A stretch of 64,000 nt of DNA from an uncultured Propionibacteriaceae bacterium (lineage in GTDB: Bacteria; Actinomycetota; Actinomycetes; Propionibacteriales; Propionibacteriaceae): assembly GCA_938046585.1 (NCBI GenBank), contig CALIWR010000005.1, forward strand, positions 69,799 through 133,798, written 5' to 3'. Within the stretch, counting starts at the first letter, position 1; each line of letters opens with the position of its first letter. The notes beneath the pieces were generated by a model, which did not search any database, was not told the DNA's origin, and was given only the letters and a program-made list of their open reading frames with translations. The position numbers and the translations under genes were made by a program. Shown piece by piece: positions 6,933 to 51,659 of the stretch.

Positions 6933-8138
6933 TTACAGAGCCGACCCTTTGCGGTACTGATCGTAGGAGACGTTCCAGTCGGTCCACCCGTTGCCGGTCT
7001 CCAGGCCACGTTTGGTGCCGGTCACCTCGATCAGGTCACCGACGCGGCAGTTCTGGAACAGCCAGGCGCCGTGCTCAGTGGAGACCCCGATACAGCCGTG
7101 GCTGACGTTGGCCTTGCCCTGACTGCCGACCGACCACGGGGCGGCATGGATGAACTCCCCGGAATCAGTCTCCCGCATCGCGTACCGGACATCGGGGATG
7201 TTGTAGTACTCCGGGCTGCCCGGTTCGATGCCGACCGAGTTGGCGTCCATCTTGAGGGTGGAGAATTTCTCCATCACGACCTTCTTGCCGCTGCGGGTCT
7301 CGAAACCGGGCTTGCCTCCGGTGATCGGGATGGTCCGAGCCGGGGCGCCGTCGATGACCACCGTCATCTGGTGGCTGGCGAGGTCGGCTTTGAGGATCAC
7401 CGAACGGGCGATGGTCATGGACCCGGACACCGACTTTTGCCCGTACCGGCCGTTACCGGCCGGGATCGAGTTGATGTCGATCTCGATGCTGACCTTGGTC
7501 CCCGGCTTCCATAGTTCCCGCGGCCGCCAGTGGGCCTCGGTGGAGGACAGCCAGTTCCAGGAACCCTCGGTTGCCGGGGTGGCGGTGACTCTCATGTGCT
7601 TCTGGAACGAGGCCCGGTCGGTGACCGGGACATCGAAACGTACCACCACCGGCATCGCGACCCCGACCGTGCCGCCGGAGGCGATCGTGGCGAAGACTTG
7701 CTGCTTGAGTGACAGGGCCTGGGTGGTGAACGTGGCGGTCCGACTGGTCGAGACCCCAGCGGTGCTCTGGCCCTGCATGGCGATCTGATAGGTCATCCCC
7801 GGCTCCAGCAGGCTGTTCGCGGTCCAGGTGGCGGCGTCTGGGGCCAGGGTGCCCTGCACGGTCTGCGGGCCAGCCTTCGGGTCGGTGTAGGTCATAGTGA
7901 CGGCGACCAGGGTCCCCTGGGTGGCGGTGACTGAAACCTTGGTATCGACCGGGACCTGAGCTCCCTCGGCGACATTGGGGGTCATCACTACCTCCGGCGG
8001 CGCGGCAGTCGAAGCGGCCGAGGCTGGACCGTCAGCCTCCGGCTTCGAACCGCCGGGGGTCTTCTGGGCACAGCCACTGACCGTGGCGGCGGTGCCGGCG
8101 CCCAACAGCGCCACCACCGTACGGCGGGAGAGCGTCAT
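6933..8138 (-). CDS. L,D-transpeptidase lipoprotein (YkuD domain, LdtMt2-like)
   Basis: Signal peptide with lipobox (TVSGC), two Ig-like N-terminal domains and a C-terminal catalytic motif HAAPWSVGSQGKANVSHGCIGVS (the His/Cys of the YkuD fold). Confidence 0.85.
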   Translation of the reverse strand: MTLSRRTVVALLGAGTAATVSGCAQKTPGGSKPEADGPASAASTAAPPEVVMTPNVAEGAQVPVDTKVSVTATQGTLVAVTMTYTDPKAGPQTVQGTLAPDAATWTANSLLEPGMTYQIAMQGQSTAGVSTSRTATFTTQALSLKQQVFATIASGGTVGVAMPVVVRFDVPVTDRASFQKHMRVTATPATEGSWNWLSSTEAHWRPRELWKPGTKVSIEIDINSIPAGNGRYGQKSVSGSMTIARSVILKADLASHQMTVVIDGAPARTIPITGGKPGFETRSGKKVVMEKFSTLKMDANSVGIEPGSPEYYNIPDVRYAMRETDSGEFIHAAPWSVGSQGKANVSHGCIGVSTEHGAWLFQNCRVGDLIEVTGTKRGLETGNGWTDWNVSYDQYRKGSAL

Positions 8139-8202: not shown

Positions 8203-9444
8203 TCACAGAGCGGACCCCTTCTTGAACTGCTCGTAGGTGATGTTCCAGTCGGTCCATCCATTGCCATTCTCCAAAGCCCGGGAACTGCCGGTGTAGACCA
8301 CCGGGTCGCCGACCTGAGTGTTGGCCATCAACCAGTCAGCGTTGTCGGTACTCATCCCGACACAGCCGTGACTGACGTTGCGCTTGCCCTGGGAGCCGAC
8401 CGACCACGGGGCGGCATGGATGAACTCGCCGGACTGGGTGACCCGCATCGCGTACTTGACGCCCTTGAGATCGTAGAACTCGGGGGAGTTCCGGTTGGTT
8501 CCGGTGGTGCCGGCGTTCATGTCCACTGCGTCCAGGCGCTCCATGATTACCTTGGTTCCCGAGCGGGTCTCGAAGCCCGACTTGCCGGCGGTGATCGGGA
8601 TGACTCTGGTCGGTTGCCCGTTCACGAGGTGGGTGGCGGTGTGAGCCGCCAGGTCGACGTTGATTTGGGCGGCCCGGCCGATGGTGAAACCGGCTCGCTT
8701 CGACTCCTGCCCGTACCGGCCATCACCAGCGTTAACCCCGTTCACGTCGATATTGATGTCCACCTGGGTGCCGGGCTGCCAGTAGACCTCCGGCCGCCAG
8801 TGGGCCTGCGTGTCTGAGATCCAACTCCAGGTGCCGTTCTGGGCCGGTGTGCTGGTGACGTGCATGTGGCGCTGGAAACTGGCCTTGTCCGCAATCGGCG
8901 TGTCGAAACTCACTACCACCGGCATGGCGACCCCCACGGTCTGCCCAGCGCCGATGATGTTGTAGACGAAGACCTGCTGCTTCAGGCTCAGCGGCGCTGT
9001 GGAGAAACTGACCGTCCTGCTGACCGGTTCGCCGGAGTTGGCGCTGGCCTGCACCACGGCCGTGTACGAGACCCCGGGCTCGAGCAAGCTGGCGGCGGTC
9101 CAGGTGGTCTGGTCGGCGGAGACCTCGCCCGCAACGGTCTTCTTCTCCGGGCGTGGGTCGGTCGAGGTCAAGCTGACCGAGGTCACTGTGCCGCCGCTGG
9201 CGACCGCCATGAAGCGGTGGTCCACCGGGACCTGGCCCCCGTCGCCCACGCTTGTGGTCAGGCTGAACGGGCCCTGGCTCGGGGTCGGCGACGAGACCGG
9301 TGACGGTGAAGTGTCTGTGGTCGCGGTGGAGGTGGCCGCCGGCGTCTGAGACACGGTGCCGGTGCCGCTGCAGGCAGCCACCAAGGCGACCAGGAGCACG
9401 ACAAACGGGACGAGGGCAATGCGTTGACGAGTAGCCGAGTTCAC
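8203..9444 (-). CDS. L,D-transpeptidase lipoprotein, tandem paralog
   Basis: Lipobox LVAACSG. Same architecture and catalytic motif (HAAPWSVGSQGKRNVSHGCVGMS) as the neighbouring gene. Visual alignment of the two translations suggests roughly 55-60% identity (not computed). Confidence 0.85.
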   Translation of the reverse strand: MNSATRQRIALVPFVVLLVALVAACSGTGTVSQTPAATSTATTDTSPSPVSSPTPSQGPFSLTTSVGDGGQVPVDHRFMAVASGGTVTSVSLTSTDPRPEKKTVAGEVSADQTTWTAASLLEPGVSYTAVVQASANSGEPVSRTVSFSTAPLSLKQQVFVYNIIGAGQTVGVAMPVVVSFDTPIADKASFQRHMHVTSTPAQNGTWSWISDTQAHWRPEVYWQPGTQVDINIDVNGVNAGDGRYGQESKRAGFTIGRAAQINVDLAAHTATHLVNGQPTRVIPITAGKSGFETRSGTKVIMERLDAVDMNAGTTGTNRNSPEFYDLKGVKYAMRVTQSGEFIHAAPWSVGSQGKRNVSHGCVGMSTDNADWLMANTQVGDPVVYTGSSRALENGNGWTDWNITYEQFKKGSAL

Positions 9445-24212: not shown

Positions 24213-24646
24213 GCGTCGAGCAGTTGTACCAGGAGATCATCCTGGAGCATTACCGCGCCAGGCATCACAGCGGGCTGCGGGAGCCGTACGACGTCGAAGT
24301 CCACCACGTGAACCCGTCCTGCGGTGACGAATTGACGCTGCGGGTGAGGTTGGACCAGGACCAGATCAGCGACATCTCGTACGACGGGGTGGGCTGCTCG
24401 ATCTCCCAGGCTTCGACCTCGGTAATGAGTGAACTCGTGGTCGGGGGCCCAGTGAGCCAGGCGTTGGAGCTGTACGACGGTTTTCAGCAGATGATCCAGG
24501 GCAAGGGCGAGGTGAGCCTGGACGAGGACCGGTACGGTGACGCTGTCGCCTTCGAAGGCGTGGCGAGGTTTCCGGCCCGGGTGAAATGCGCGATGCTCGC
24601 CTGGGCCGCGCTCAAGGATGCGCTGTTGCGCGCGTCTACCACGTAA
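24209..24646 (+). CDS. sufU: Fe-S scaffold/sulfur acceptor SufU (IscU-like)
   Basis: GTG start overlaps the sufS stop (GTGA). Contains HHVNPSCGDELTLRV and DGVGCSISQASTS (the three Cys) and a His in KCAMLAWAAL. The longer upstream ORF is rejected. Confidence 0.85.
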   Translation: MSVEQLYQEIILEHYRARHHSGLREPYDVEVHHVNPSCGDELTLRVRLDQDQISDISYDGVGCSISQASTSVMSELVVGGPVSQALELYDGFQQMIQGKGEVSLDEDRYGDAVAFEGVARFPARVKCAMLAWAALKDALLRASTT

Positions 24647-24655
24647 GGAGGACCG

Positions 24656-25063
24656 ATGACCGATTCGTCACCAGAGCCCCGCGATCCGCAGGGACGACCC
24701 TCGGACCTGGTGAGAGAACCGCTGCCCGGCACCCAGCAGGCCGGTCTGGCCTTCACTACTACGGTCGAGGATCTCGAAGAGGCAATGAAAGATGTCGTCG
24801 ACCCGGAGCTGATGGTGAATGTCGTCGACCTGGGCCTGGTGTACGGGATCCACCTTGACGAGGAGTACAACGCCACCATCGACATGACCCTGACCTCGCC
24901 GACCTGCCCGCTCACTGACCGGATCGAGTACGACACCCAGATGGCATTGCACGGGCTGGTGAACAGCGTCACCATCAACTGGGTCTGGATGCCGCCGTGG
25001 AGCCTCGAAAGGATCACCGAGGACGGGATCGAACAGCTGCGAGCGATCGGGTACAACGTCTGA
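24656..25063 (+). CDS. sufT: SufT / DUF59 (MIP18-family) Fe-S assembly protein
   Basis: 135 aa with a DUF59 core (VVDPELMVNVVDLGLVYGI...TLTSPTCPLTD). Last gene of the suf operon, as in mycobacteria. Confidence 0.8.
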   Translation: MTDSSPEPRDPQGRPSDLVREPLPGTQQAGLAFTTTVEDLEEAMKDVVDPELMVNVVDLGLVYGIHLDEEYNATIDMTLTSPTCPLTDRIEYDTQMALHGLVNSVTINWVWMPPWSLERITEDGIEQLRAIGYNV

Positions 25064-25543
25064 GACGGGGTCGATTCCAAACAAGCGGGCGCCACCGGCA
25101 CGGCCATCCGATGCCGCTCACGGCATCGTCCGGCGTGCTCGAGTGGATGAGACCGCCAGTGAATCGGTCGTTCCTGATCGGTAGGGCCACGTTCATGGGG
25201 GGTGGCCGCAATGGGCAACAAGGTGGTCGCTACTGTGGGTAGTGGGCGGCCAGACACTGGCGTCTTGCCGCCGCTTCATCATCTGACATCCGGGATCGAA
25301 GGTGCGTGTGGGGCTCGGCATCTCGGTACTCACAGCCAGAAACATCCCGGACAGGGAATGAGGGAGCACCCAGCAGGAAGCGCGGGCCGGCCCTGGGCGC
25401 CTACGATCACGGTGGGGACAGTGGCGGGCAGGATGTCCGCAGCCGGCTGTGCCCGCTACCACGAACGTGAGGAGCCGACCGTCGATGACCGTGCCAGCTA
25501 GCCTGTTCGCCCTTGCCCGGCCCGGCAAGGTAGGGGACCAGCG

Positions 25544-27448
25544 GTGAGCGGCCCGCTGCGGGTCGGGATCGTGGGTGGCGTCGCCCACGACACCTTCGCT
25601 CATCTGCCGGACGCAGCAGCGGAGAAAATCTTCTGGGTGGCGCGGCAGTCGTTGGCGAGCCCCTTGGCCTCACTCGATCCAGACCAGGTACCGCCACCGG
25701 CATTGGCGTCGCCGTGCCAGCGGGCGATGGTGCTGGCAGACCTGGCAGGGTCGTTGATCAGCACCATCGAGCGGCACGCATCCGAACTGGACCTGCTGCT
25801 GATCGACCTGTTCGACGAACGGTATGGGCTGGTCCGGACCCGTGACCAGGCACTACTGACCAGTTCAGACGAGCTTCGCCGTTGCGGGCTGCTGGAAGAG
25901 GTCGGAGTGGCGCAGGCCCTGCGACTCGGGTCGCCGGAACACCTGGACCTCTTCCGGCAGGGCTTGGACCTGCTTGTGAAGACCCTGACCCAGACTGGGC
26001 TGCGAGACCGGACCCTGTTGCTGGCCCCAGCCTTCGCCGAGGACCTACTGCCAGGGGCCGAGGTGGACCCGGCCGATGTGCACCGATTGCGTCGAGAGGC
26101 GCAAGAGTTCAACCGTCTCTACCCGGACTACTTGGCCGAAGTTGAATACCGGGGGATCAGCGTGCTACGGCTCGGCATCGACACCGTGCGAATGGACCCG
26201 GGGCATCCGGGTGGACTGAGCATCCTCCACTACCAGGATGCGACCTATCAGGCCCTGCTGGAGGCAATCCGGAATAAGGCTTCGGCCTTCGTCGACGGGC
26301 CCCTGCTGCGACAGACTGCCCTGGTGAACACAGCTCAGGACGTCTTCCTGGACCCGGCCGAGGAGGAGCCGTTTGTGGTCGGGGACGAGCCGCCCCGATC
26401 GGACCTCGACACCACGGACGACCAGCCGGGAGACGACCCACACCGGCTGGGGCTGCCGCAACCGCTGGAACCCGGGCCAGAAGAACCCGAGCTTGAGGCG
26501 CGTACCGGCCCCAGATCAGACCGGCCGGCAGAGACCGAGCAGCCCAGAGCACTGGTCTTGCTGCTGCACCGCTCGGGATCGGTGCCGTCGATCGGACCAG
26601 AGGATCTGCCAGCATGGGTTCGGATCGAATCCTGCGAGGTGGCCGAGCAGGATCCGGAGACCACCCCGGAGCCTGCCAGCCGGCTACGTGAATTGCTGAC
26701 CGAGTCGCGGCTGGCGCCTCACCAGGCCGTGGTGGTCGCGTCCGAGGCGATGGCAGTGACCGCAGTGGTGACCGCCTCCGGGGTGCCCCAGACCTCGGTC
26801 GTGGTGCTGCCAGAAGCGGAGGATCACCATGCCATGGGGCACCGGCTCGGGCACGTGGTAGCAGCCCTCCAGGTTCGCCCCCAACTCCCGTCCCTGCTCA
26901 TCTTCACCAGGCGGCGTAGCCCGTTCCTGCAGATCCTGTGGTGGCTGATCAGCTTGTATGAGGACCTATCAGCCCAGGCTCAACTGGGAACGGTGTCGAT
27001 CGAGGTCGTCGACCAGGAACGAGAGCCCGACCGGCAGCGGGCCCTGGCGGCGGTTACGCGGCTGCTGGGCCAGGCGCCCCCGCCGGACGAGATGCTGGAC
27101 GGCGCCAGCCTGCGACGACCCGAGCAGCTGGACGTGCTGGACCGTCAGACCCAGTGGGTGCTGCTACCGCCCGACATCCGGCACGTCCGGGTCACGGTCG
27201 TTACCTCCGAAGCCAGCCCGGCAGCCACGGTCCGAGTGGTGGCGGCCACGGCCCAGGCCCAGTCAGGGGCAGACACCCTCGGCAGGAACGCGTTGGCGCA
27301 TGAGGTCGACGTACCCGAAGGCGGCGGCTCGTGTCAGACCACGATCAGTAGTTCCGGGGCGGTGCTGCTGCGCGCGGTGGGGCTGAGCCGGACGGACGCG
27401 GCGCAGCCGCTCGCGGTGGACCGGGTCGACGTGGAACCGCTGACCTGA
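25544..27448 (+). CDS. large uncharacterised cytoplasmic protein, paralog A (two-domain, no recognisable catalytic motif)
   Basis: 634 aa. GTG start with GGTAGGGGA upstream. No signal peptide or TM. Paralogous over its full length to the convergent gene at 27473..29317. Confidence 0.6.
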   Translation: MSGPLRVGIVGGVAHDTFAHLPDAAAEKIFWVARQSLASPLASLDPDQVPPPALASPCQRAMVLADLAGSLISTIERHASELDLLLIDLFDERYGLVRTRDQALLTSSDELRRCGLLEEVGVAQALRLGSPEHLDLFRQGLDLLVKTLTQTGLRDRTLLLAPAFAEDLLPGAEVDPADVHRLRREAQEFNRLYPDYLAEVEYRGISVLRLGIDTVRMDPGHPGGLSILHYQDATYQALLEAIRNKASAFVDGPLLRQTALVNTAQDVFLDPAEEEPFVVGDEPPRSDLDTTDDQPGDDPHRLGLPQPLEPGPEEPELEARTGPRSDRPAETEQPRALVLLLHRSGSVPSIGPEDLPAWVRIESCEVAEQDPETTPEPASRLRELLTESRLAPHQAVVVASEAMAVTAVVTASGVPQTSVVVLPEAEDHHAMGHRLGHVVAALQVRPQLPSLLIFTRRRSPFLQILWWLISLYEDLSAQAQLGTVSIEVVDQEREPDRQRALAAVTRLLGQAPPPDEMLDGASLRRPEQLDVLDRQTQWVLLPPDIRHVRVTVVTSEASPAATVRVVAATAQAQSGADTLGRNALAHEVDVPEGGGSCQTTISSSGAVLLRAVGLSRTDAAQPLAVDRVDVEPLT

Positions 27449-27472
27449 GCCGACGCCGACACCAGCCTGTGC

Positions 27473-29317
27473 CTATAGGGCGGTCACGGTGAGGTCATTG
27501 ACCCGCGCCTCGGGAAGGTCGCCGCGGACCAAGGCGACCGCACGGACCAGGGTCCCGGCAGGAAGAGCGACGATCTCGTTGATCCGGGTCTCACCTGAGC
27601 CGACCGGAAGGAACCGGAACCAGCCGATCTGCGGATCCTCGGACTCGGCCAGGTGCGCCGAGGTGGCCTGCTGATGGTTCAGCCCGGCCGCCGCCACCGC
27701 GAGCAGCACCCCTCGGGCACTGCCCTCGGCGGCAGGCACCGACACTGTTGCGGTCACCCGGACCGCATGCCGCCCGGGCGCCGTGAGTACCCATCGTGGC
27801 TCGGTTTCCAACGTCAGGCTGCTGCCAGGGGCCACCAGGTGGTCCCCTCGCAGGGTGATGTGCGGGCGCTGAGCGTCGGTCAGCGAGGCCGTCTGATCCG
27901 TCAGCACCCAGGCAATGCTCTCGGCTGTACGAGACGGTTGCGGCAGCGGATGGATCACGACGCTCATGGTCCCGGCTCGTTCGGCGCCATCAGCCAAGTC
28001 GCCGAGACGGTCAACCAGCCACCACACCATGCTCAGAGCATCCGAGCCGCGGGTCGAGGTCAGCGACACCGTCGGCAGCCATGGCATCCGAGCCAGGACC
28101 TGTTCAACCTCGCCCAGCCCACGCGACAGTGTCGGCTCCTCGCCCTGGTGCGGCACGATGACCACCCGTGACCCCGGGACTTGTGCCGCGATCAGCACCG
28201 CCTTCGCCGCCAGATGATCAGGGGCCAACACCACAGCATCGCAAGGGCCCACCTTGAGCGCCGTCAGGGCGAGCACTAGGGTCTCGGCAGCGGACCGGGC
28301 TGCATCGACCGGTGTCGGCCCCTGCACGTCGAGCGCCAGCGCATGGCAACTGGTCGGCAAACCGGCCAGATCCACACTGGGTTCCGAATCCGGACCGTGC
28401 AGAACCAACACCAGGCTGCTGGCCGGATCTCGCCGCAGCACCTGCATGACGTGTCCCTGATCGTCGCGGAACCGGCCAAGCCGTCCGACACGGGCCGAGC
28501 CGAGCCGGTCAATCGGGGCAGCAGCGGCAGGTGGCCGCAGCGGCAGGGCAGTGGCGAAACTGGCCACCGCCCGACGAGCCGTCTCGTACACTGCGGGGGT
28601 GAAATGGTCGGCAGCCAACCCGCGAGGATGGTCGGGATCCATCCGGGTCTGCTCTGAGGTCAGCCGAAGACCGTTGATCCCGCGCTCGGCCAACGCGGCG
28701 AAATAGCGCTCGAAGACCGGGTTGGCGGTTAGCGCCATCCGGCGACAGTCAGCCAGAGCGACCACATCGGCGCGTAAGGCCCGGTCTGCTAGGACCGCCA
28801 GGTCCAGATTCAGGGCGAAGGTTCGTTCCACCAGGTGGTGGGCCTGCAATCGGGCCACCAACAGATCCAGCCCCGAACGGAACAGCTGAAAATGCTCTTC
28901 ACTGCCGAACGGGACCCGCCTGATCACATCCACGCCGTCCAACGCGCCTGACAAGTGCAGTTCGGACGACAACGTGAGCAGCCCGCCGCCGGCCAGGCGG
29001 GCTACGCCAGCCCGCTCGTTGCCGAGATCGATCACCAGCAGGTCCAGATCATCGCCGCGTTCGTCCACGAGGTCGAGCACCGAGCCACGGGCGTCGTCCG
29101 TGACGATGCTTGAATCGGCCGAGGAGAGCAGATCGAGCCGGTTTGGGTCCACCGGGCCGGTCAGGCTGGCCAGGGACTGGCCTGTGACCGTGAAATCGGT
29201 CTCGGCTGGCAGCGAGAAACCGTTCATGACATCAAGGCTGATACCACTGCCGTAGACGGCGAGGCGCAGCGGCACGACGCAAACCCTCCTTCCGAATACG
29301 GCGTTCGATGCGATCAC
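27473..29317 (-). CDS. large uncharacterised cytoplasmic protein, paralog B
   Basis: 614 aa. Shares blocks with paralog A: VTGQSLASLTGPVDP vs VARQSLASPLASLDP, LDLLVIDLGNERAGV vs LDLLLIDLFDERYGLV, GSEEHFQLFRSGLDLLVARL vs GSPEHLDLFRQGLDLLVKTL, TRMDPDHPRGL vs VRMDPGHPGGL, and a C-terminal VVLAPDHLAAKAVLIAAQVPGSRVVIVPHQGEEP vs VVVASEAMAVTAVVTASGVPQTSVVVLPEAEDHH. Confidence 0.6.
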   Translation of the reverse strand: MIASNAVFGRRVCVVPLRLAVYGSGISLDVMNGFSLPAETDFTVTGQSLASLTGPVDPNRLDLLSSADSSIVTDDARGSVLDLVDERGDDLDLLVIDLGNERAGVARLAGGGLLTLSSELHLSGALDGVDVIRRVPFGSEEHFQLFRSGLDLLVARLQAHHLVERTFALNLDLAVLADRALRADVVALADCRRMALTANPVFERYFAALAERGINGLRLTSEQTRMDPDHPRGLAADHFTPAVYETARRAVASFATALPLRPPAAAAPIDRLGSARVGRLGRFRDDQGHVMQVLRRDPASSLVLVLHGPDSEPSVDLAGLPTSCHALALDVQGPTPVDAARSAAETLVLALTALKVGPCDAVVLAPDHLAAKAVLIAAQVPGSRVVIVPHQGEEPTLSRGLGEVEQVLARMPWLPTVSLTSTRGSDALSMVWWLVDRLGDLADGAERAGTMSVVIHPLPQPSRTAESIAWVLTDQTASLTDAQRPHITLRGDHLVAPGSSLTLETEPRWVLTAPGRHAVRVTATVSVPAAEGSARGVLLAVAAAGLNHQQATSAHLAESEDPQIGWFRFLPVGSGETRINEIVALPAGTLVRAVALVRGDLPEARVNDLTVTAL

Positions 29318-29508
29318 AGACGCCGATCGTCAGGATACGGGTTTGATCGCCCTCGTTTTCGCAAGGGCTGGCTGCGGCGTTGAGTCCCCGTCCCCCTCAC
29401 GACGAGAAGATCCCGAGCGATGGTGGCCGGTTGGGGTGTTTTAGACCGGGTTCCCCATCGCCGCCGTCATTCCTGAGGAGATCAGGCTGGTGGGTTCTGG
29501 AACAATCG

Positions 29509-31116
29509 GTGCTCGTGCTCACGGTCAACAATCTGGAGGTCAGGGCGGGTGCCCGGCTGCTGCTGGAGCCGGTATCGTTCCCGGTCAACCCCGGCGACAA
29601 GATCGGGCTGGTTGGGCGCAATGGCGCCGGCAAGACCACCCTGACTCGGATCCTGGCAGGAGAAGGGATCCCGGCTGCGGGCACGGTCACCCGTACCGGG
29701 GCTGTCGGCTACCTGCCGCAGGATCCGCGGGCCGGGGACCTGGAGGTCCTGACCAGAAACCGGATCTTGTCGGCCCGCGGCCTGGACACGGTGCTGGAAC
29801 GGCTGGAGCGCTACTCGGTCGAGATGGCTGACGCCAAGAACCCGTCCGGCCAGGAGCGGGCGATGACCTCGTACGCCCGGGCCGAGGCTGAGCTGCTCGC
29901 CGCCGGCGGGTACGGCGCCGAAGCGGAGGCGGCCCGGATCGCAGCCAACCTGGGATTGCCGGAACGGGTCCTGAGCCAGCCGTTAGGAACCTTATCCGGG
30001 GGGCAGCGGCGCCGGGTGGAACTGGCGCGGATCCTGTTCTCTGGCGCCGACACGCTGCTGCTGGATGAGCCCACCAACCACCTGGACGCAGACTCGGTGG
30101 TTTGGCTGCGCGGCTATCTCAAGGATTATCCCGGTGGCCTGGTGATCATCTCCCACGACACTGCGCTGTTGGACATGGTGGTCACCAAGGTCTTCCATCT
30201 AGACGCCAACCGGGCCGTGCTGGACCAGTACGCGATGGGCTGGCAGGCGTACCTGGTGCAACGCGAGACCGACGAGAAGCGCCGCAAGCGGGAACGCGCC
30301 AACGCCCAACGCAAGGCCGAGCAGCTTCTGGCCCAGGCCGACAAGATGCGCGCCACCGCGACCAAAGCGACTGCAGCGCAGAACATGGCCCGCCGAGCCG
30401 AGCGGCTGTTGGCTGGGATGGCAGCCGAACGTCGCGCCGACAAGGTGGCCCAGATCCGGCTACCGGAACCGCTGCCGTGTGGCAAGACCCCGCTATCGGC
30501 CCGGGAACTGTCAAAGTCGTACGGTTCGTTGGAAGTCTTCACCGACGTCGACCTGACCATCGATCGCGGCGCCAAGGTGGTGGTGCTCGGGCTTAACGGC
30601 GCCGGGAAGACCACCCTGCTGCGGCTGCTGTCTGGGATCGAACCGCCCGACACCGGGGAAATAGTGGCCGGACACGGGCTGAGACTGGGGTACTACGCCC
30701 AGGAACACGAGACCCTGGATCCTGCCCGAACAGTCCTGCAGAACATGACTTCGGCCTCGCCGCATCTCGACGATACCCAGGTTCGCAACGTCCTCGGTTC
30801 GTTCCTGTTCACCGGTGACGACGTCGACAAGCCAGCCCGGGTGCTGTCTGGCGGTGAGAAGACCCGCCTGGCGTTGGCGATGCTGGTCGTCAGTTCGGCC
30901 AACGTCTTGCTGCTGGACGAACCCACCAACAATCTCGACCCGGCTTCCCGCGAGGAGGTGCTGGCCGCGATCCATACGTATCCGGGGGCTATCGTCCTGG
31001 TCACGCACGACGAGGGAGCGGTACACGCCTTGGAACCGGACCGGGTACTGCTGCTGCCAGACGGAGTGGAGGACCTGTGGTCGGCTGACTACGCCGACCT
31101 GGTCGGTTTGGCCTGA
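29509..31116 (+). CDS. ABC-F family ATPase (tandem nucleotide-binding domains, no TMD)
   Basis: Two Walker A motifs (GRNGAGKTT, GLNGAGKTT), two signature motifs (LSGGQRRRVELARIL, LSGGEKTRLALAML) and an inter-domain coiled-coil linker (KRRKRERANAQRKAEQLLAQADK). The start is placed at an in-frame GTG; the upstream TTG-initiated extension is doubtful. Confidence 0.85.
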   Translation: MLVLTVNNLEVRAGARLLLEPVSFPVNPGDKIGLVGRNGAGKTTLTRILAGEGIPAAGTVTRTGAVGYLPQDPRAGDLEVLTRNRILSARGLDTVLERLERYSVEMADAKNPSGQERAMTSYARAEAELLAAGGYGAEAEAARIAANLGLPERVLSQPLGTLSGGQRRRVELARILFSGADTLLLDEPTNHLDADSVVWLRGYLKDYPGGLVIISHDTALLDMVVTKVFHLDANRAVLDQYAMGWQAYLVQRETDEKRRKRERANAQRKAEQLLAQADKMRATATKATAAQNMARRAERLLAGMAAERRADKVAQIRLPEPLPCGKTPLSARELSKSYGSLEVFTDVDLTIDRGAKVVVLGLNGAGKTTLLRLLSGIEPPDTGEIVAGHGLRLGYYAQEHETLDPARTVLQNMTSASPHLDDTQVRNVLGSFLFTGDDVDKPARVLSGGEKTRLALAMLVVSSANVLLLDEPTNNLDPASREEVLAAIHTYPGAIVLVTHDEGAVHALEPDRVLLLPDGVEDLWSADYADLVGLA

Positions 31117-33430: not shown

Positions 33431-34957
33431 CTAGGTGATGACTATCGCCTTTTCTGGGTCGCTGCTGCGCTCGACGTCAGGCAGGCCGTCGCGGACGATC
33501 CAGACCGTTACCGACAGCTTCTTGCCCCGGTCAGCGGCGGTTGGGACATACCAGCGTTGGGTTGCTCCTGGCACCGGCTTGCCGTCGATCTTCCACTGTT
33601 GGCGCATGTCCTTCACGTATGGGTACCAGCTGTTGGAGAAGGCCTGCGCCTTCGAGCCGACCGTGGCCGGACCGTTGAACTTGACCTCCGGCTGCCCCTC
33701 CAGGGCGGGAACCAGGATCTGGGCGCTGGTGCGGACCGCGGGGGCGGCCCCGGCCTGGGACGCGGTCACGCTCACCGACAGGTGATGGAAGACATCCGCC
33801 TGGCTGATCTGATAATCGGTCTTGGTGGCGCCGGGAATCGGCTGCCCGTCGCGTCGCCACTGGTAACTGATCGTCGCGGGAGCCGGGACGAAAGCCCGGT
33901 GGTGGACCTGAAGAGTAGAGCCGAGAGCCACCTTTCCCGTGATCGCAGGATTCGGGTGAGACGACCATCCGTCGACACCAGGCAGCTTCCAGTCGGGACG
34001 AGCGACAAAACTGAGTTCCCCCATGGGGATCTTCGTGATCGGCTCTTGTACCACCCCGCCTGGGGTCTTGGGGCCGTAGGAGTGGATTACCTGTTTGTTC
34101 CCGACATAGACCGCGGTGTGGTACACGTTGCCGAAGAAAGCTCCGGTGTTCTCATCTTTACCCTCGGGCCGTTGGCGAGAGAAGAACAGAATGTCCCCGA
34201 CGGCCAGCTGCTTAACCACCTCATTCGGATCCTGCGATGAGGGCAGCCACAACCGCTGGTTGTTCTGGAACCACAGCGCCAATCGGTTTGCGCCCACCAT
34301 CCGGGAGGTGCCTTGCTCCTTGCCGAAGTCAATCGCCGCCCCGACGACGGTATTCTGGTCTGCCACGTACGTCGTCGACGAGTAGCTGTACCCGTACAGC
34401 AGCATCGCCGCGAAGTTGCTGCAGGTGATCGGATACGGGGGCTGTTCTTTGTACAGCTTGTGCACCGGTTCTGCGGTCATCAACGGAGCCTTGCGCTTCG
34501 CATCCCAGATCAGATTCCTGCCCGCGGCCACGAAAGTCTGTGCCCGGGCAACGACGTCGTGGGTGGTCTGGTCTGGGGCGGCCGCCGCCGGCACGTCACG
34601 CCGCAACTGAGCCGGTACGGCGAAACGGCCGTTCTGGAGCGGGATCCCGATCCGCTGTAACGATGTCTCGGCGGGCGGCGAGTCCAGGATCTGGAAAAGC
34701 TGGGGGAAACCGTCGTTCCAGGTCGCGGACCCCCTGGTCCACACCAGACCCGGCAATGCGGTTGCCCGCTTGAGATCCTCGGGGGTGTCGAGGGACAGAA
34801 TCGGTTGGGTGGTGGACTGTGCGGCGGGAGAGGCCGAGACCGACGCCGTGCCGTTCGCGCCCGGTGTCCGTGCGATGACGGCCTGGGCGGAAACGGTAGC
34901 GACGCCGGCGCAGGTCAGCGTGATCCCCGTAGCGACAGCAATGATGAAGCGCTTCAT
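33431..34957 (-). CDS. secreted NlpC/P60-like (C40 peptidase-like) protein with two C-terminal Ig-like repeats
   Basis: Signal peptide (MKRFIIAVATGITLTCAGVATVSAQA), a central region with Cys and His candidates (ITCSNFAAMLLYGYSYS ... GNVYHTAVYVGNKQVIHS) and two tandem ~45-aa repeats (QWRRDGQPIPGATKTDYQISQADVFHHLSVSVTA and QWKIDGKPVPGATQRWYVPTAADRGKKLSVTVWI). Confidence 0.6.
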   Translation of the reverse strand: MKRFIIAVATGITLTCAGVATVSAQAVIARTPGANGTASVSASPAAQSTTQPILSLDTPEDLKRATALPGLVWTRGSATWNDGFPQLFQILDSPPAETSLQRIGIPLQNGRFAVPAQLRRDVPAAAAPDQTTHDVVARAQTFVAAGRNLIWDAKRKAPLMTAEPVHKLYKEQPPYPITCSNFAAMLLYGYSYSSTTYVADQNTVVGAAIDFGKEQGTSRMVGANRLALWFQNNQRLWLPSSQDPNEVVKQLAVGDILFFSRQRPEGKDENTGAFFGNVYHTAVYVGNKQVIHSYGPKTPGGVVQEPITKIPMGELSFVARPDWKLPGVDGWSSHPNPAITGKVALGSTLQVHHRAFVPAPATISYQWRRDGQPIPGATKTDYQISQADVFHHLSVSVTASQAGAAPAVRTSAQILVPALEGQPEVKFNGPATVGSKAQAFSNSWYPYVKDMRQQWKIDGKPVPGATQRWYVPTAADRGKKLSVTVWIVRDGLPDVERSSDPEKAIVIT

Positions 34958-35003
34958 CGACTGCTCCTGGTGGTGGACGGCCGAATCTGGCTGTTGGGCT
35001 GAT

Positions 35004-35077
35004 GCGTGCCCCGAGCCAAGCACGTGCTCGGGGCACCTGGCAAGCCTCGCTGGTGATTGGCCAGATCACCGGCTCCC
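35004..35077. promoter_or_regulatory. two palindromes in the divergent NlpC/P60-fabG1 intergenic region
   Basis: Perfect 11-bp inverted repeat GTGCCCCGAGC-n9-GCTCGGGGCAC (35004-35034) and a second near-palindrome GGTGAT-TGGCCA-GATCACC (35058-35077) between divergently transcribed genes. Confidence 0.35.
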
Positions 35078-40640: not shown

Positions 40641-40803
40641 CCTCCCTCGTCCCGTTTCCCGAACCAGGCTATCGGCCACAGCGCCGTTGCGAAGCCATCA
40701 GATCATGATGTGCCCTCCGAATATTGGCAGCGGCCAGAACCTGGACCCGTGCCCGGCATCCGTCGACACGAATCCGGTAGGCCGCCGGCTGCGGCGGTAG
40801 CTG

Positions 40804-41739
40804 GTGTGCGAGCGGCAGACTGACCGGGTGAGCGAGCCACAAGTGTTGGGGGACCTGGTCCAGCGCTACCTGGACCATCTGCGTGACCGCGGCTACTCCG
40901 AGCACACCCGACGCGGCTATGCCCAGGACCTGGCCACGCTGGAAACTTTTTTGCGCCAGCAGGGGTGTACCAGCCCAGACCAGGTCGACCTGCGGACCCT
41001 GCGGGCCTGGCTGGCTGCCCAGACCGGGGCCAGCCGCGCCACCGTCCAGCGGCGGGCTTGCGGGGTCCGAGCTTTCTACGCCTGGGCTGTCCGCGCCCGG
41101 CTGGTGCCCAGCGATGCGGCCGCGGGCCTGCGGTCTCCGAAGACCCCGAAACGACTGCCGGCCACCATCACCCAGGCCGAGGCGGCCGAGATGCTGCGCT
41201 CGGCGATCGCCGTGGCCGCCGAGGATGATTCTGCGGTCGGTGCCCGCGATGTCGCGATCCTGGAGCTGTTGTACGCAGCTGGGATCCGGGTCAGCGAACT
41301 GTGCGGGCTCGACCTGGGAGACCTCGACCTGGCCCGGCAGGCGATCCGGGTCCTCGGCAAGGGCAACAAGGAACGCACTGTTCCGATCGGGAACCCTGCC
41401 CAGCGGGCCTTGGATGCCTGGCTGGCCCGCCGCCGGGAACTGGCCCGGCCCAGATCCGGACGGGCCGTCTTCATCGGGCAACGAGCCGGTGCCCGAATCG
41501 ACCCGCGGGTGGTGCGCCGGATCGTGCACCGGGCCCTGGGGTTGGTCGACGGTGCCCCTGACCTGGGCCCGCATGGTCTGCGGCACGCGATGGCGACCCA
41601 TCTTCTGGAAGGTGGGGCTGATCTGCGGACGATCCAGGAACTGCTCGGACATTCCAGCTTGGCGACCACCCAGCTCTACACGCACGTCACCACTGACCGG
41701 CTGCGGGCCGCCTACGCCCAGGCCCACCCCCGTGCTTAG
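40804..41739 (+). CDS. xerC: tyrosine recombinase XerC/XerD family
   Basis: N-terminal SAM-like core-binding domain and C-terminal catalytic residues (R...HxxR in GLRHAMATHLL, LLGHSSLATTQLYTHV with catalytic Tyr). The start is ambiguous: GTG 40804 or GTG 40828. Confidence 0.8.
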   Translation: MCERQTDRVSEPQVLGDLVQRYLDHLRDRGYSEHTRRGYAQDLATLETFLRQQGCTSPDQVDLRTLRAWLAAQTGASRATVQRRACGVRAFYAWAVRARLVPSDAAAGLRSPKTPKRLPATITQAEAAEMLRSAIAVAAEDDSAVGARDVAILELLYAAGIRVSELCGLDLGDLDLARQAIRVLGKGNKERTVPIGNPAQRALDAWLARRRELARPRSGRAVFIGQRAGARIDPRVVRRIVHRALGLVDGAPDLGPHGLRHAMATHLLEGGADLRTIQELLGHSSLATTQLYTHVTTDRLRAAYAQAHPRA

Positions 41740-41777
41740 GCCGTGGCCGACGATCTCGGCAGACACCCATCGGCGCA

Positions 41778-42683
41778 TCACCACAGACCAGTGGGGTCGA
41801 TCAGCTGCTGATTCACCCAGGCCTGGGCGTGCAGGTGGCAGCCGGTGGACATCCCGGTGGTGCCGACCGCTGCGATCACCTGGCCCCGAGCCACCCGGGC
41901 CCCGGCCCGGACCGCGAATGACTGGGCGTGGGCGTATCCAGTTACGACATGGCCTCGCGAGCCCGTACCGTGATCGACCAGGACCCGGTTGCCGTAGGCC
42001 CCGTCCCAGCCGGCCGAGACCACCACGCCATCGGCCCAGGCTCGGATCGGGGTCCCACAAGCAGCGCCGATATCAGCCCCGTCATGCAGCTTCCAGACCC
42101 CGGTTACGGGATGGCGCCGCATACCGAACGGCGAGGTGATCGGGCCATCAGCTGGGCGAGAGCTGCCCGAGCCGGCGACCTGGGCGGCCGTGACCGGACG
42201 CGGGGTGACGCCCCGTGGCAGCAGCCGAACCTGGGACGGTCCGATCAGCAACATCGGGTCCAAATACTCCTCGCCGGATCTCAGCCCCCAGTGCAAGCAG
42301 GCCGGAGCCGGACACGGATGTCCCGCCTCCAGCCGGGCGACCGGGTCTCCGGCCGCCACCTGGGTCCCGACTGCCACTGTCGCCGTCACCGGCTCGTACG
42401 TGGTACGGACCGTCCCGTGATCGATCACCAGCACGCCGCGTCCCGCGACCATCCCGGAGAACGAGATCCGCCCTGACGCGGCAGCGACCACGGTGGCACC
42501 GGGCTCGGCGGCGATGTCGACACCGCGGTGTCCCGAGCCCCACCGGACCTCGGGTGGGTCGTACGGTGTCACCACCGGCCCGGCCACCGGCAACCGGCCC
42601 CGGGGCAGGCCGACATCGCCTCGCGCCGGGGTTGCCAGGCTCAGGAACACCAGGGTCGCCAGGACAACCACAATTCGTCTCAT
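41778..42683 (-). CDS. secreted peptidase M23 protein with two LytM-like domains
   Basis: Signal peptide (MRRIVVVLATLVFLSLATPARG) and two M23 motifs (HRGVDIAAEPGATV...HWG and HDGADIGAACGTPI...GCHLHAQ). ATG 42683 is preferred over the upstream GTG. Confidence 0.75.
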   Translation of the reverse strand: MRRIVVVLATLVFLSLATPARGDVGLPRGRLPVAGPVVTPYDPPEVRWGSGHRGVDIAAEPGATVVAAASGRISFSGMVAGRGVLVIDHGTVRTTYEPVTATVAVGTQVAAGDPVARLEAGHPCPAPACLHWGLRSGEEYLDPMLLIGPSQVRLLPRGVTPRPVTAAQVAGSGSSRPADGPITSPFGMRRHPVTGVWKLHDGADIGAACGTPIRAWADGVVVSAGWDGAYGNRVLVDHGTGSRGHVVTGYAHAQSFAVRAGARVARGQVIAAVGTTGMSTGCHLHAQAWVNQQLIDPTGLW

Positions 42684-42998
42684 GCCTTCGACTATGGGCA
42701 GCGCCACCGGAATCGGACATTTCCACTGGGCAGCTGTGGATAACGCTCGGGGTCGTTCGGCGGCTGTGGACAGGTCACACCTCTGACGGCTTTGCCGGGA
42801 CCGGGCAGCGCTTGTACGCTATCGGCAGCGACCGGGCAACCCCGGTCGACTTCGCATGCCGACACACCGTGGTCGCACGGGTCGTCACCCAGAGGTCCCG
42901 GTCTCCGGGCGGGGACGGCGTCGGCGTCAGGCGGCATCGAACCGTTCGGTGCCGGGAGAACCTCGCGGCCGACGCCGGCCGTACAGAAAGGAACGGCC

Positions 42999-43850
42999 AT
43001 GGCCGTCGTCACCGCCCGCCAGCTGCTCGACAGCGGCGTTCACTTTGGGCACCAGACCCGTCGCTGGAACCCCAAGATGAAGCGCTTTATCTTCACCGAG
43101 CGCAACGGCATCTACATCATCGACCTGCACCAGTCGCTGACCTACATTGACCAGGCCTATGCCTACGTCAAGGACACAGTCGCCAAGGGCGGGCAGATCC
43201 TCTTCGTGGGCACCAAGAAGCAGGCCCAGGAGGCGATCGCCGAACAAGCCACCCGAGTCGGGATGCCGTACGTGAACCAGCGCTGGCTGGGTGGCATGCT
43301 CACCAATTTCCATACCATGGTGAAGCGGATCCAGCGGCTCAAGGAGCTGGAGGCGATGAACTTCGACGACGTCGCCGCCTCGGGGCTGACCAAGAAGGAG
43401 CTGCTGGGGCTGCGTCGCGAGAAAGACAAGCTCTCCAAGACCCTGGGCGGGATCCGCGACATGAGCCGTCCGCCGCAGGCGGTCTGGGTGATCGACACCA
43501 AGAAGGAGCACCTGGCCGTCGACGAGGCCCGCAAGCTGCGGATCCCCGTGATCGCGATCCTGGACACCAACTGCGACCCGGACGAGGTCGACTGGCCGAT
43601 CCCCGGCAACGACGACGCAATCCGCTCGGTCGGGCTGCTGACCCGGGTGATCGCCGACGCCGTCGCCGACGGGCTGGTGTCCCGCTCCGGGCACGGTGCG
43701 ACCGGTGAGAAGACCGAGGCCGAGCCGATGCCGGAGTGGGAGCGTGAGCTGCTCGCCGGCCAGGAGGCCGCAGCCCCCGAGCAGGCCCCTACCGGACAGC
43801 CGGCCGAGACCAACGCCGACCAGCCGGCGACCACCCAGACCACTAACTGA
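42999..43850 (+). CDS. rpsB: 30S ribosomal protein S2
   Basis: [27 protein letters not shown]... is the canonical S2 N-terminus. AAAGGAAC RBS. Acidic and Pro-rich C-terminal extension typical of actinobacteria. The 69-codon upstream ORF extension is rejected. Confidence 0.95.
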
Positions 43851-43880
43851 CCGACCCGTACCAGCGAGGAACACCAACGA

Positions 43881-44693
43881 ATGGCCATTACTGCCACTGA
43901 CGTCAAGAAGCTCCGGGACATGACCGGAGCCGGGATGATGGACGCCAAGAAGGCGCTCACCGACAGCGACGGAGACTTCGAAAAGGCTGTCGAACTGCTC
44001 CGGATCACCGGAGCCTCCAAGGCCGCCAAGCGTTCCGACCGCGAAGCCAGTAACGGCATCGTGGCTGCCAGCGGGCACGCCCTGGTGCAGCTAGGCGCTG
44101 AGACCGACTTCGTCGCCAAGAACGAGGAATTCGTCACCGCCGCCCAGCAGATCGTCGAGGCCGTCGACCAGGCCGGGGCTGACAGCGTCGAGGCCGCCTT
44201 GACGCTGAACCTGGCCACGGGCGAGACCGTCGCCGACCGGATCGCGGCCCTGGTCGCCAAGATCGGGGAGAAGATCGAGCTGGTCAAGGTCGCCCGCTTC
44301 GCCGGGCAGACCCAGACCTACCTGCACCACCGCAGCCAGGATCTTCCGCCTCAGGTCGGGGTGCTGGTCGAGTATCAGGGTGACGATGCTGACCTGATCC
44401 GTATGGTGACCATGCAGATCGCCTCCATGTCGCCGCAGTTCGTCTCGCGCGATGAGGTGCCACAGGAGACCGTCGCCAACGAGCGGCGGATCGCCGAGGC
44501 TGCTGCCCGTGAGGAGGGCAAGCCGGAGCAGGCGATCGCTCGGATCGTCGAGGGCCGAGTGGGTGCCTTCTTTAAGGATGTCTGTTTGGTGGACCAGCCG
44601 GCGATCTCGGACGACAAGCAGAGCGTCGGGACGCTGCTGAAGAAGGCCGGGATCACCGTCACCCGCTTCGTACGGTTCGCTGCAGGAGCCTGA
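43881..44693 (+). CDS. tsf: elongation factor Ts
   Basis: N-terminal UBA-like VKKLRDMTGAGMMDAKKAL and downstream dimerisation domains. Located immediately after rpsB. Confidence 0.95.
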   Translation: MAITATDVKKLRDMTGAGMMDAKKALTDSDGDFEKAVELLRITGASKAAKRSDREASNGIVAASGHALVQLGAETDFVAKNEEFVTAAQQIVEAVDQAGADSVEAALTLNLATGETVADRIAALVAKIGEKIELVKVARFAGQTQTYLHHRSQDLPPQVGVLVEYQGDDADLIRMVTMQIASMSPQFVSRDEVPQETVANERRIAEAAAREEGKPEQAIARIVEGRVGAFFKDVCLVDQPAISDDKQSVGTLLKKAGITVTRFVRFAAGA

Positions 44694-51200: not shown

Positions 51201-51659
51201 CTGGAGGCCTACTGCGAATCGGTCGACACCATCGTCACCACTCACGAGCGGGTTGCCCAGGCCTACCTGCGCGACGGCTCGATCGAGCAGGCCTGCCCGC
51301 CGCTGCGGGCCCTGCTGGAGATCATGGCCCAGGGCCAGTCGCGGGAAGGCTGGGACCTCACCACGGCTGACTTCCGCCGGCTCTTCGAGAGGGACACCAT
51401 CCTGGCCAGCGACTGGTACGCGGCCCGGCTCGACTCGCAGCAGGACGCCGATGTGCGCCACATCGAGCGGGGGATCGCCACCATGGAGCACTTCCTGCAG
51501 CGGGAAGGCAATGAGGAGGCGGCCAGCCGGATCGGTCTGGAGCAGCGGCTGGCGCGTTCCCGTGACGAATTGCGGTGGCGCCGTTCGGCCGAGTACCGGG
51601 CACAACTGGTGGGTGCCCTGGGCCGGCAGCCGCTGGCGCTGCCGCCGGCTGGGTTCTGA
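48264..51659 (+). CDS. very large (1131 aa) uncharacterised cytoplasmic protein
   Basis: Single uninterrupted ORF with coding-like composition. No TM or signal peptide and no recognised catalytic family. Contains one P-loop-like stretch ATVSGGGKSE. The start is ambiguous: TTG 48264 or ATG 48276. Confidence 0.6.
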   Translation: MNGSMTLQPAEVYLRLALTGLPVPENAAETAHLIDPIIARQRELNRRLADRLCPADARIQRFLDSYFEGIDERPQLPRRSLVLDCPGLARTLSLPANADAFTSPLLSSYRLANGVLHNPANDRRTTAGVFHISEGGSPIPDDKLAVPREVFARMLVRAFQPPESAMELPYTAGMAEPARCFVSLLLRPLVVPQVPGYSQAKTMETRFIVPGGLVANLDFVESVFGNAGDPYLPENDATLDQATFTGTTGCVILAPHLTRLTKKELGLPHIDQATERQRRDQMCWSDEDELYNNGQAFKCCARDERGVIVTVIADNYFGYCKKEVKTQLSYSANLIGGVEEEHSGGAVVFASYNNGQEFTEHTPDGYHLDDVVARDPERFACQPEGHALDLMQPRIVLVPANATFSLRTQTISWPAADGVATIQLRADRSYLSPVGFRTEMRQIAADGNQWSLISTQPMPTTCHKPATVSGGGKSEISKAISDAIIHGNAYTADYDADMEQVAAILDADLSGRFKDPDRRTDTRPILSDQRSVGSVIKLLTPSSVEYTDEYNDWLASIPQHIKELVFVIKRFYRPEWGADWRSHFTVGIMNGRKGNALRLDGERIQVNTLRVGFDEDGSWRIFGLRHDFNPAIKVQTEDDITASIVAPPGAARTWPTVSRKFVANCEQLLFQRPDDAIHRGYDTQAELDISQPGTFLSNFQPLDRDDAIAMRDDAIGYHAFTEPMRRLIGQVADGQVSETYFVSSANPRLVGGKPSKNPRYLQQRPDLSHPVSTEIADVAVHLLWRVPLSEQIALPVDLVAAGRRNNPAEPGVAPLCAYNPLHYMELPELFMEFISSMTGKSPSTTGAGSEGAMTKGPFNAMPTVYDLNAALLSYALTGYDGWLSAAGYVGPKVRVDHDVSLLVPEVFARMTAQERSAQALIENGCLERISDITYQGRLVRASRLGYRMTARFARWYFGRIFMHPHVVFTPEMLAPELQDLEAYCESVDTIVTTHERVAQAYLRDGSIEQACPPLRALLEIMAQGQSREGWDLTTADFRRLFERDTILASDWYAARLDSQQDADVRHIERGIATMEHFLQREGNEEAASRIGLEQRLARSRDELRWRRSAEYRAQLVGALGRQPLALPPAGF

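Follow-up and report, generated by a model that had tools for sequence, protein, structure and literature searches.

Between the suf genes and an ABC-F gene on contig CALIWR010000005.1 of an uncultured Propionibacteriaceae bacterium, two large homologous genes lie tail-to-tail, and this raises the question of whether their products work together and on what kind of substrate. The stretch of DNA we analysed, referred to as the window, is 64,000 nucleotides (nt) long, and the convergent pair consists of gene A on the plus strand and gene B on the minus strand. Both open reading frames (ORFs) are found where the original prediction placed them, with stops that end at 27448 and 27473 and 24 nt between them:

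25544..27448, plus strand: gene A, GTG start, 634 amino acids (aa); DUF6270 domain, disordered acidic/Pro-rich linker, alpha/beta-hydrolase-like domain and beta-sandwich
27449..27472, no strand: inter-stop spacer, 24 nt between the stops of A and B
27473..29275, minus strand: gene B, 600 aa after start correction; DUF6270 domain, alpha/beta-hydrolase-like domain and beta-sandwich

We find that A and B arose by an ancient duplication and that both encode soluble, cytoplasmic proteins of three domains. The question of their role can be answered more tentatively: we favour, with rather less than even confidence, a reading in which the two proteins form a cooperating, functionally shifted offshoot of a family that modifies cell-envelope glycopolymers.

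Paralogy, selection and domain architecture of the pair

BLASTP aligned A and B along almost their entire length with 30% identity (E = 4e-40), 192 of the 641 aligned columns being identical. This similarity is far beyond chance and is in good agreement with the earlier estimate of full-length homology at about one-third identity. Identity amounts to 37% in the N-terminal, 32% in the middle and 27% in the C-terminal domain. Both proteins have an orthologue in one relative, represented by a metagenome-assembled genome of an uncultured oral Propionibacteriaceae bacterium. A is 67% identical to its orthologue P0002 and B is 75% identical to P0004, compared with 30% between the paralogues, and the duplication is therefore older than the species split.

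Selection was assessed by calculating Nei-Gojobori ratios of nonsynonymous to synonymous substitution rates (dN/dS) between the window and the relative (dS ~0.8-0.9). Whole-gene values were 0.38 for A and 0.18 for B, and those of neighbouring housekeeping genes ranged from 0.065 (sufB) to 0.40 (sufD). In both proteins the middle domain is the most constrained part, with values of 0.22 in A and 0.076 in B, and the beta-sandwich of A shows a value of 0.53. A and B are thus under purifying selection and both genes are kept by it, B more tightly than A. In addition, all sub-regions of A and B carry the coding signature GC1 > GC2 << GC3, i.e. the guanine-cytosine (GC) content of the three codon positions, in a genome of 66% GC. 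Codon-position GC content and dN/dS together rule out that A or B is a pseudogene or a spurious ORF, and the earlier description of both genes as intact stands. The same is true for their proposed cytoplasmic location, as no signal peptide or transmembrane segment was predicted in A or B. Both proteins are acidic.

The longest ORF for gene B extends over 27473..29317 on the minus strand and would encode 614 aa. We moved the start to a GTG at 29275, which yields 600 aa, because a GGAAGGAGG Shine-Dalgarno sequence is located 9 nt upstream of this codon and because the orthologue begins at the equivalent Pro-Leu-Arg-Leu, as do independent gene calls. The GTG of gene A is preceded by a Shine-Dalgarno-like AGGGGA. 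No terminator-like hairpin was found in the 24-nt spacer, which measures 95 nt in the locus of the relative, and a promoter and terminator scan in and around the spacer returned nothing useful. Identical copies of protein A have been called in other assemblies. Another assembly contains a frameshifted gene B (P0005, 327 aa), whose N-terminal ~250 aa are identical and are followed by out-of-frame sequence; this frameshift is most likely an assembly or sequencing error rather than a natural pseudogene.

Three domains were found where two had been described originally. An AlphaFold2 model of B, built from a 74-sequence alignment and with a mean predicted local distance difference test (pLDDT) score of 81.6, consists of an N-terminal alpha/beta domain, a second alpha/beta domain and an eight-stranded beta-sandwich. 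When the C-terminal 314 residues of B were modelled alone, the topology was unchanged, at a lower confidence (pLDDT 66.7). The domains are arranged as follows:

25544..26293, plus strand: A, N-terminal DUF6270 domain, aa 1-250 (Pfam match aa 13-230)
26294..26548, plus strand: A, Pro/Glu/Asp-rich low-complexity linker, aa 251-335 (85 residues), from the alignment with B and the orthologues
26549..27088, plus strand: A, alpha/beta-hydrolase-like middle domain, aa ~336-515, placed via alignment to B, with the fold taken from the B models
27089..27445, plus strand: A, C-terminal beta-sandwich, aa ~516-634, aligned to the all-beta region of B
28541..29275, minus strand: B, N-terminal DUF6270 domain, aa 1-245 (AlphaFold2 pLDDT mostly >93)
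27866..28483, minus strand: B, predicted alpha/beta-hydrolase-fold middle domain, aa ~265-470, with D353 at the nucleophile elbow and D412 and H442 as candidate triad partners
27476..27838, minus strand: B, C-terminal beta-sandwich, aa ~480-600, predicted to have eight strands (pLDDT by block ~44-85, dipping over aa 532-540)

The linker of A is absent from B; it is longer in the orthologue of A, to which it is 39% identical. With a gathering threshold of 27.5 bits, Pfam PF19786 (DUF6270) matched A with 127.1 bits (E = 1.3e-36, aa 13-230) and B with 84.1 bits (E = 1.8e-23, aa 21-239 of the 614-aa ORF). Apart from DUF6270, neither protein had a match in Pfam, NCBIfam, PADLOC, PHROGs or PDB sequences. 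PADLOC gave zero matches and PHROGs a single, non-significant one (E = 0.19), and PDB sequence searches yielded nothing meaningful, whether run with single sequences, with the C-terminal profile or with the DUF6270 profile. A defence-system or phage origin of the pair was rejected because NCBIfam, PADLOC and PHROGs gave no significant match. The original prediction could assign neither a motif nor a function to the two proteins; the N-terminal half can now be placed in a Pfam family, while it remains correct that no function has been established. Databases label A and B only as 'DUF6270 domain-containing protein', and the literature searched contains no mention of DUF6270, PF19786 or the sample accessions.

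The DUF6270 family and its conserved residues

A profile of A, B and their orthologues was searched exhaustively against 1.84 billion representative proteins, and 1,128 proteins were found at E <= 1e-3. Full-length matches were limited to A itself and the orthologue of B; the rest of the top 150 match profile positions ~1-250, i.e. DUF6270, alone. C-terminal-only relatives scoring below ~100 bits would fall outside the listed matches. In the library searched, the DUF6270 family comprises 1,128 clusters at 50% identity, and most of its members are single standalone genes encoding ~250 aa.

Longer members point to the setting in which the domain is used. All 45 long DUF6270 proteins carry the domain, and their recognisable partner domains are all glycan-modifying: heparinase II/III-like (Hepar_II_III), glycosyltransferase families 61 (GT61) and 2 (GT2), hexapeptide acyltransferase, sulfotransferase, FkbM methyltransferase and a GDSL-like domain. 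In most long proteins, including 10 of 10 examined in detail, DUF6270 is located N-terminal to the variable domain. C-terminal extensions could be extracted for 42 of them, and 25 of these 42 fall into one cluster which includes the heparinase II/III matches and is thus the commonest extension. Gene neighbourhoods are of the same kind. Loci L004 and L005 contain glycosyltransferase family 4 (GT4) enzymes, a sulfotransferase, Epimerase_2 and an ATP-binding cassette (ABC) exporter of the ABC-2 type. An ABC-2 exporter and Epimerase_2 are also present in L006 (Aestuariimicrobium soli), together with a 1027-aa GT2 protein and a pyruvyl transferase. In L008 a tandem DUF6270 protein (P0006, 449-1978) adjoins a Hepar_II_III_C protein. 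L011 (Ornithinimicrobium) combines an ABC ATPase, Epimerase_2, a DUF6270-heparinase-like fusion, GT4 and a UDP-sugar dehydrogenase, L012 (Pedococcus soli) holds GT4 enzymes, an ABC ATPase, Epimerase_2 and a UDP-sugar dehydrogenase, and L013 holds glycosyltransferases and a UDP-sugar dehydrogenase.

Epimerase_2 is the WecB/MnaA family of UDP-N-acetylglucosamine (UDP-GlcNAc) 2-epimerases, and WecC/Cap5O-type UDP-N-acetylmannosamine (UDP-ManNAc) dehydrogenases are members of the UDPG_MGDP_dh family. Based on these family identities, we infer that the loci are ABC-exporter-dependent and serve ManNAc(A)-containing, teichuronic-acid-like cell-envelope polymers. In actinobacteria and other bacteria, DUF6270 belongs to cell-envelope glycopolymer pathways that depend on ABC transporters, where it adjoins glycan-modifying enzymes or is fused N-terminally to them. 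Cell-envelope polymer loci had been suggested as a possible neighbourhood for homologues of the pair. This holds for the DUF6270 family, in fusions as well as in gene contexts, but not for the A/B locus, which departs from the usual glycan-locus setting of PF19786, an empirical association found here and not part of the Pfam definition.

To what extent A and B still resemble the family can be read from 33 positions that are at least 90% conserved across 70 standalone members. A keeps 27 and B 22 of these near-invariant positions, compared with a family median of 32 and a minimum of 27. Both depart from the consensus of the family motifs G-S-C-V-x-R-D, Y-x-A-R-Q-S-L-x-S, D-L-x-D-E-R-x-G and H-x-W-G-x-A-P-x-H-Y. 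Five losses (C31, R34, Y51, F82 and W266) are common to A, B and both orthologues. C31, which is 99% conserved in the family, and R34 belong to G-S-C-V-x-R-D at the beta1/alpha1 junction, and W266 is part of the H-x-W-G motif. A additionally lacks S30, bringing its losses to six (S30, C31, R34, Y51, F82, W266), whereas B keeps S30 but additionally lacks R54 and Q83. The polar core formed by D35, D114, E118, R119, H170, H264 and H272 is kept in all four sequences, and the motif positions kept by A and B are D35, Q55, S59, D114, E118, R119, G121, T135, H170, N229, Y235, H264, G267, H272 and Y278. Retention is complementary: ARQS and DxxDER remain in A, the motif-I Ser in B. Since they are shared between paralogues and orthologues, the common losses most simply predate the duplication. 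Judging from these residues, the common ancestor would already have shifted its function, plausibly upon gaining the hydrolase-like and beta-sandwich module.

The N-terminal segments had originally been likened, faintly, to an SGNH/GDSL block I. SGNH/GDSL enzymes such as PatB (7tjb) and CJ0610C (8gr2) carry GDS at the beta1/alpha1 junction, where the DUF6270 family carries G-S-C-x-x-R-D. At this SGNH block I position beta1 ends in G-S in B and in G-G in A; no segments could be assigned to blocks II (G) and III (GxND). An SGNH-like D-x-x-H (block V) is found near the C-terminus of the DUF6270 domain, as MDPDH in B and MDPGH in A. No GDSL Pfam match was obtained for the DUF6270 region, and hhalign of the DUF6270 profile against E. 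coli TesA gave no match, a weak and uninformative result. The weak GDSL-like match of P0015, which lies below the Pfam gathering score, concerns a separate C-terminal region that does not overlap with DUF6270.

The middle domain and its candidate catalytic residues

The C-terminal half of both proteins had been described as Rossmann-like. According to the models of B, it instead consists of an alpha/beta-hydrolase fold followed by the beta-sandwich, and the middle domain is predicted to be a cap-less alpha/beta-hydrolase fold without the canonical Ser-His-Asp triad. In the B model the nucleophile elbow is formed by a strand at residues 347-352 and a helix starting at 353. Elbow sequences are A-P-D-H-L in B, A-G-D-H-L in its orthologue, A-S-E-A-M in A and A-T-E-G-L in the orthologue of A. 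The elbow residue is therefore Asp in the B lineage (D353 in B) and Glu in the A lineage instead of Ser or Cys, and the last residue of the elbow motif (Sm-x-Nu-x-Sm, where Nu is Ser, Cys or Asp) is not small in either lineage. An Asp nucleophile is possible in B; to our knowledge, Glu is without precedent as an alpha/beta-hydrolase nucleophile. H442 and D412 occur only in B and its orthologue, and A and its orthologue carry Asp and Pro at these sites. Both residues were assigned to triad positions from secondary-structure order only, in a region with a pLDDT of 45-65; in general, the pLDDT of the B middle domain is 65-85 and drops to 45-65 over aa 430-470. Going by this model, B might keep an Asp-His-Asp arrangement.

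The closest known small cap-less alpha/beta-hydrolases are SOBER1 (6avv), a carboxylesterase from P. fluorescens (1auo), acyl-protein thioesterase 2 (5syn) and dienelactone hydrolase (2o2g). The middle domain shares only 9-15% sequence identity with these enzymes and differs from them in the elbow Asp (B) or Glu (A), which takes the place of Ser or Cys, and in having His and an acid in the B lineage only. No Pfam family, alpha/beta-hydrolases included, matched any of the four C-terminal regions or their profile at E <= 10, nor did any PDB sequence match them. A glycan-modifying protein with an alpha/beta-hydrolase fold is the capsule O-acetyltransferase SacC/CsaC from N. meningitidis serogroup A (6yuo), which shows no sequence similarity to A or B. 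SacC acts through a Ser-His-Asp triad, and this triad was not found in the A/B middle domain.

These features bear on the possibility that A and B are both pseudoenzymes, that is, binding or scaffolding proteins which retain hydrolase-like folds but have lost the chemistry of both domains. The absence of C31, R34 and W266 from both DUF6270 domains would fit such a role, as would the replacement of the middle-domain Ser nucleophile by Asp or Glu, the additional loss of His and acid in A, the lack of a Pfam alpha/beta-hydrolase match even at the permissive threshold, and the degeneration of the second repeat in tandem DUF6270 proteins described below. On the other hand, the polar core of DUF6270 is kept in all four sequences, and B and its orthologue retain D353, D412 and H442. 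The strong constraint on the B middle domain (dN/dS of 0.076) fits an active site as well, though a binding site would fit too. Taken together, we consider a loss of chemistry in both proteins unlikely.

Distribution, locus and proposed role of the pair

Scanning GTDB species representatives and JGI metagenomes, we found the pair in two genomes only, the window organism and the uncultured relative, and an identical copy of A comes, according to its record name, from a human oral metagenome. Word-indexed searches with A and B each returned the query itself and one orthologue. The C-terminal module had no relatives outside the pair and its orthologues in the searches made. A word-indexed profile search with the C-terminal region alone returned only a self fragment, comparison of the A/B C-terminal profile by hhalign with the extensions that follow in 42 other long DUF6270 proteins at their C-termini gave probabilities of 1% or less throughout, and a BLAST search of the module against other DUF6270 proteins found no carrier.

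As originally noted, the pair is flanked by suf and ABC-F: sufR-B-D-C-S-U and a DUF59 gene lie upstream, and the ABC-F gene lies downstream. In the relative (L001) the convergent pair occupies the equivalent slot between suf and ABC-F. Here, additional flanking genes are present, namely a PhzF-family gene and a 147-aa gene upstream, on the strand opposite to suf and A, and a truncated Epimerase_2 downstream. The latter (L001 14219-14722, minus strand), situated between the orthologue of B and ABC-F, corresponds to residues ~192-370 out of ~390 in the full enzyme, and it shares 40% identity with the epimerases in the loci of Pedococcus and Ornithinimicrobium. We regard it as the probable remnant of an ancestral glycopolymer cluster. 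A tblastn search with the PhzF, 147-aa and Epimerase_2 genes of the relative detected no remnant in the window.

It could be argued that the pair itself is a functionless relic of such a decayed cluster, once situated between suf and ABC-F. Only the C-terminal half of the epimerase is left beside the orthologue of B and the gene is wholly lost from the window, no glycan genes are left nearby, and conserved family residues have disappeared from A and B. This explanation is very unlikely and is largely refuted on grounds of selection. Neither gene is disrupted in the two genomes, between which dS is ~0.8-0.9, their dN/dS of 0.18-0.38 lies inside the range of the housekeeping neighbours, the codon-position GC pattern is preserved and gene B has a strong Shine-Dalgarno sequence. 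The residue losses are old and stable, since the orthologues share them.

In both genomes the pair lies between ABC-F and the DUF59 gene that closes the suf operon, and gene A is on the same strand as suf, which might suggest a role in Fe-S cluster assembly or for the neighbouring ABC-F translation factor. We give this explanation hardly any credence: suf and A are 480 nt apart in the window, two opposite-strand genes fill this gap in the relative, other DUF6270 proteins are tied to glycan loci and not to suf, and none of the other suf-bearing genomes searched contains the pair.

Beyond the pair and its flanks, the window contains pgk, tpiA, pgl, opcA, zwf, two L,D-transpeptidases, a sugar ABC importer, H+-PPase, PHO4, an RlmA-like rRNA methyltransferase, short-chain dehydrogenase/reductase (SDR)-type reductases of the adh_short family, pyrH and cdsA. 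The L,D-transpeptidase genes (6933-8138 and 8203-9444, minus strand) are adjacent paralogues, each encoding a Big_10 domain N-terminal to a YkuD catalytic domain. A stretch of 480 nt without a convincing gene (25064-25543) separates the DUF59 (SufT-like) gene from gene A; no Rfam match was found in 24500-29600. The ABC-F ORF at 29380-31116 (plus strand), listed with a TTG start and 578 aa, probably extends too far at the 5' end. As its orthologue has 533 aa, we place the start near 29515, leaving a ~240-nt divergent intergenic region shared with gene B. Four long ORFs had no Pfam match at E <= 1e-5: 33431-35023 (minus strand), 40669-42060 (minus strand), 42215-43150 (plus strand) and 42927-44078 (minus strand). 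Because several of them overlap opposite-strand ORFs, some are probably spurious high-GC frames. A further ORF of 1131 aa is located at 48264-51659 (plus strand).

Whether A and B cooperate is informed by other cases in which two DUF6270 domains are kept together. Three single chains (P0006, P0007 and P0008) are DUF6270-DUF6270 tandems, and the second repeat of both P0007 and P0008 has lost motif I (G-S-C) and A-R-Q-S, so that by sequence the repeats resemble an active/degenerate pair. In Pedococcus soli (L012 9001-12199) two convergent DUF6270 genes are found, one encoding 793 aa with the domain at the C-terminus, tail-to-tail with a standalone copy of 250 aa. Like A and B, the tandems and the Pedococcus soli pair keep two DUF6270 domains together, with one copy often degenerate at motif I and ARQS. 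Unlike A and B, they are without the alpha/beta-hydrolase and beta-sandwich module, retain the Cys in at least one copy and are found inside glycan loci. A check of pairing in other bacteria, as proposed at the outset, thus recovered the same pair in the relative, the second convergent pair and the tandems; most sampled DUF6270 loci, however, hold one copy.

With single-copy loci and standalone ~250-aa genes being the rule in the family, A and B could also have sub-functionalised and act independently on separate substrates, with adjacency being a mere trace of the duplication. Convergent orientation rules out co-transcription, and 30% identity leaves room for distinct specificities. We nevertheless judge independence to be somewhat unlikely. 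The adjacency of A and B has been kept in both genomes despite gain or loss of flanking genes (PhzF, the 147-aa gene and the Epimerase_2 remnant), tandem fusions and a second convergent pair are known, and the motif residues retained by A (ARQS and DxxDER) and by B (motif-I Ser) are complementary. Cooperation of A and B is therefore favoured by the tandems, the Pedococcus soli pair and the strict co-retention of both genes despite the change in their flanks.

Several observations weigh against A and B being a cooperating offshoot of a glycopolymer-modifying family. Being convergent, the two genes are not co-transcribed. DUF6270 itself is without an assigned function, and no glycan-biosynthesis genes are present within the 64-kb window, so that the link to glycans comes through family association alone. 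As both proteins have lost the 99%-conserved Cys, the DUF6270 domain could be non-catalytic in each of them. In addition, part of the candidate Asp-His-Asp set of B falls where the model has low confidence, and the set is missing from A.

Our tentative explanation, in which A and B cooperate, would run as follows. The common ancestor of A and B would already have shifted its function, with loss of the family Cys, an Arg, a Trp and two aromatic residues and gain of the lineage-specific esterase-like and beta-sandwich module, and would then have been duplicated. The two products would cooperate in the cytoplasm, most likely by forming a hetero-oligomer, and their substrate would be a sugar polymer or sugar-linked. 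B, which keeps the motif-I Ser and the candidate Asp-His-Asp set, would be the more constrained and possibly catalytic partner, and A the more relaxed, probably non-catalytic one. A more specific version seems quite improbable to us: here, A and B would form a heteromeric enzyme/pseudoenzyme complex combining a Cys-less DUF6270 domain, a lineage-specific alpha/beta-hydrolase with an Asp nucleophile and a beta-sandwich, and would modify a cell-envelope glycopolymer or glycoconjugate in a new way in the cytoplasm of human-oral Propionibacteriaceae.

On their own, A and B are a lineage-specific pair found in two genomes and challenge no established idea. Their wider meaning concerns the DUF6270 family, which is shown here to travel consistently with an actinobacterial ABC exporter, UDP-GlcNAc 2-epimerase, UDP-sugar dehydrogenase and GT4, providing a first contextual handle on the family. 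The pair is a narrowly distributed derivative of this family with a shifted residue set and an orphan esterase-like module, and it could reveal how such modules pair as active and degenerate subunits. If A and B do form a heteromeric complex of the kind outlined above, they would represent a tractable entry point to the role of the whole DUF6270 family.

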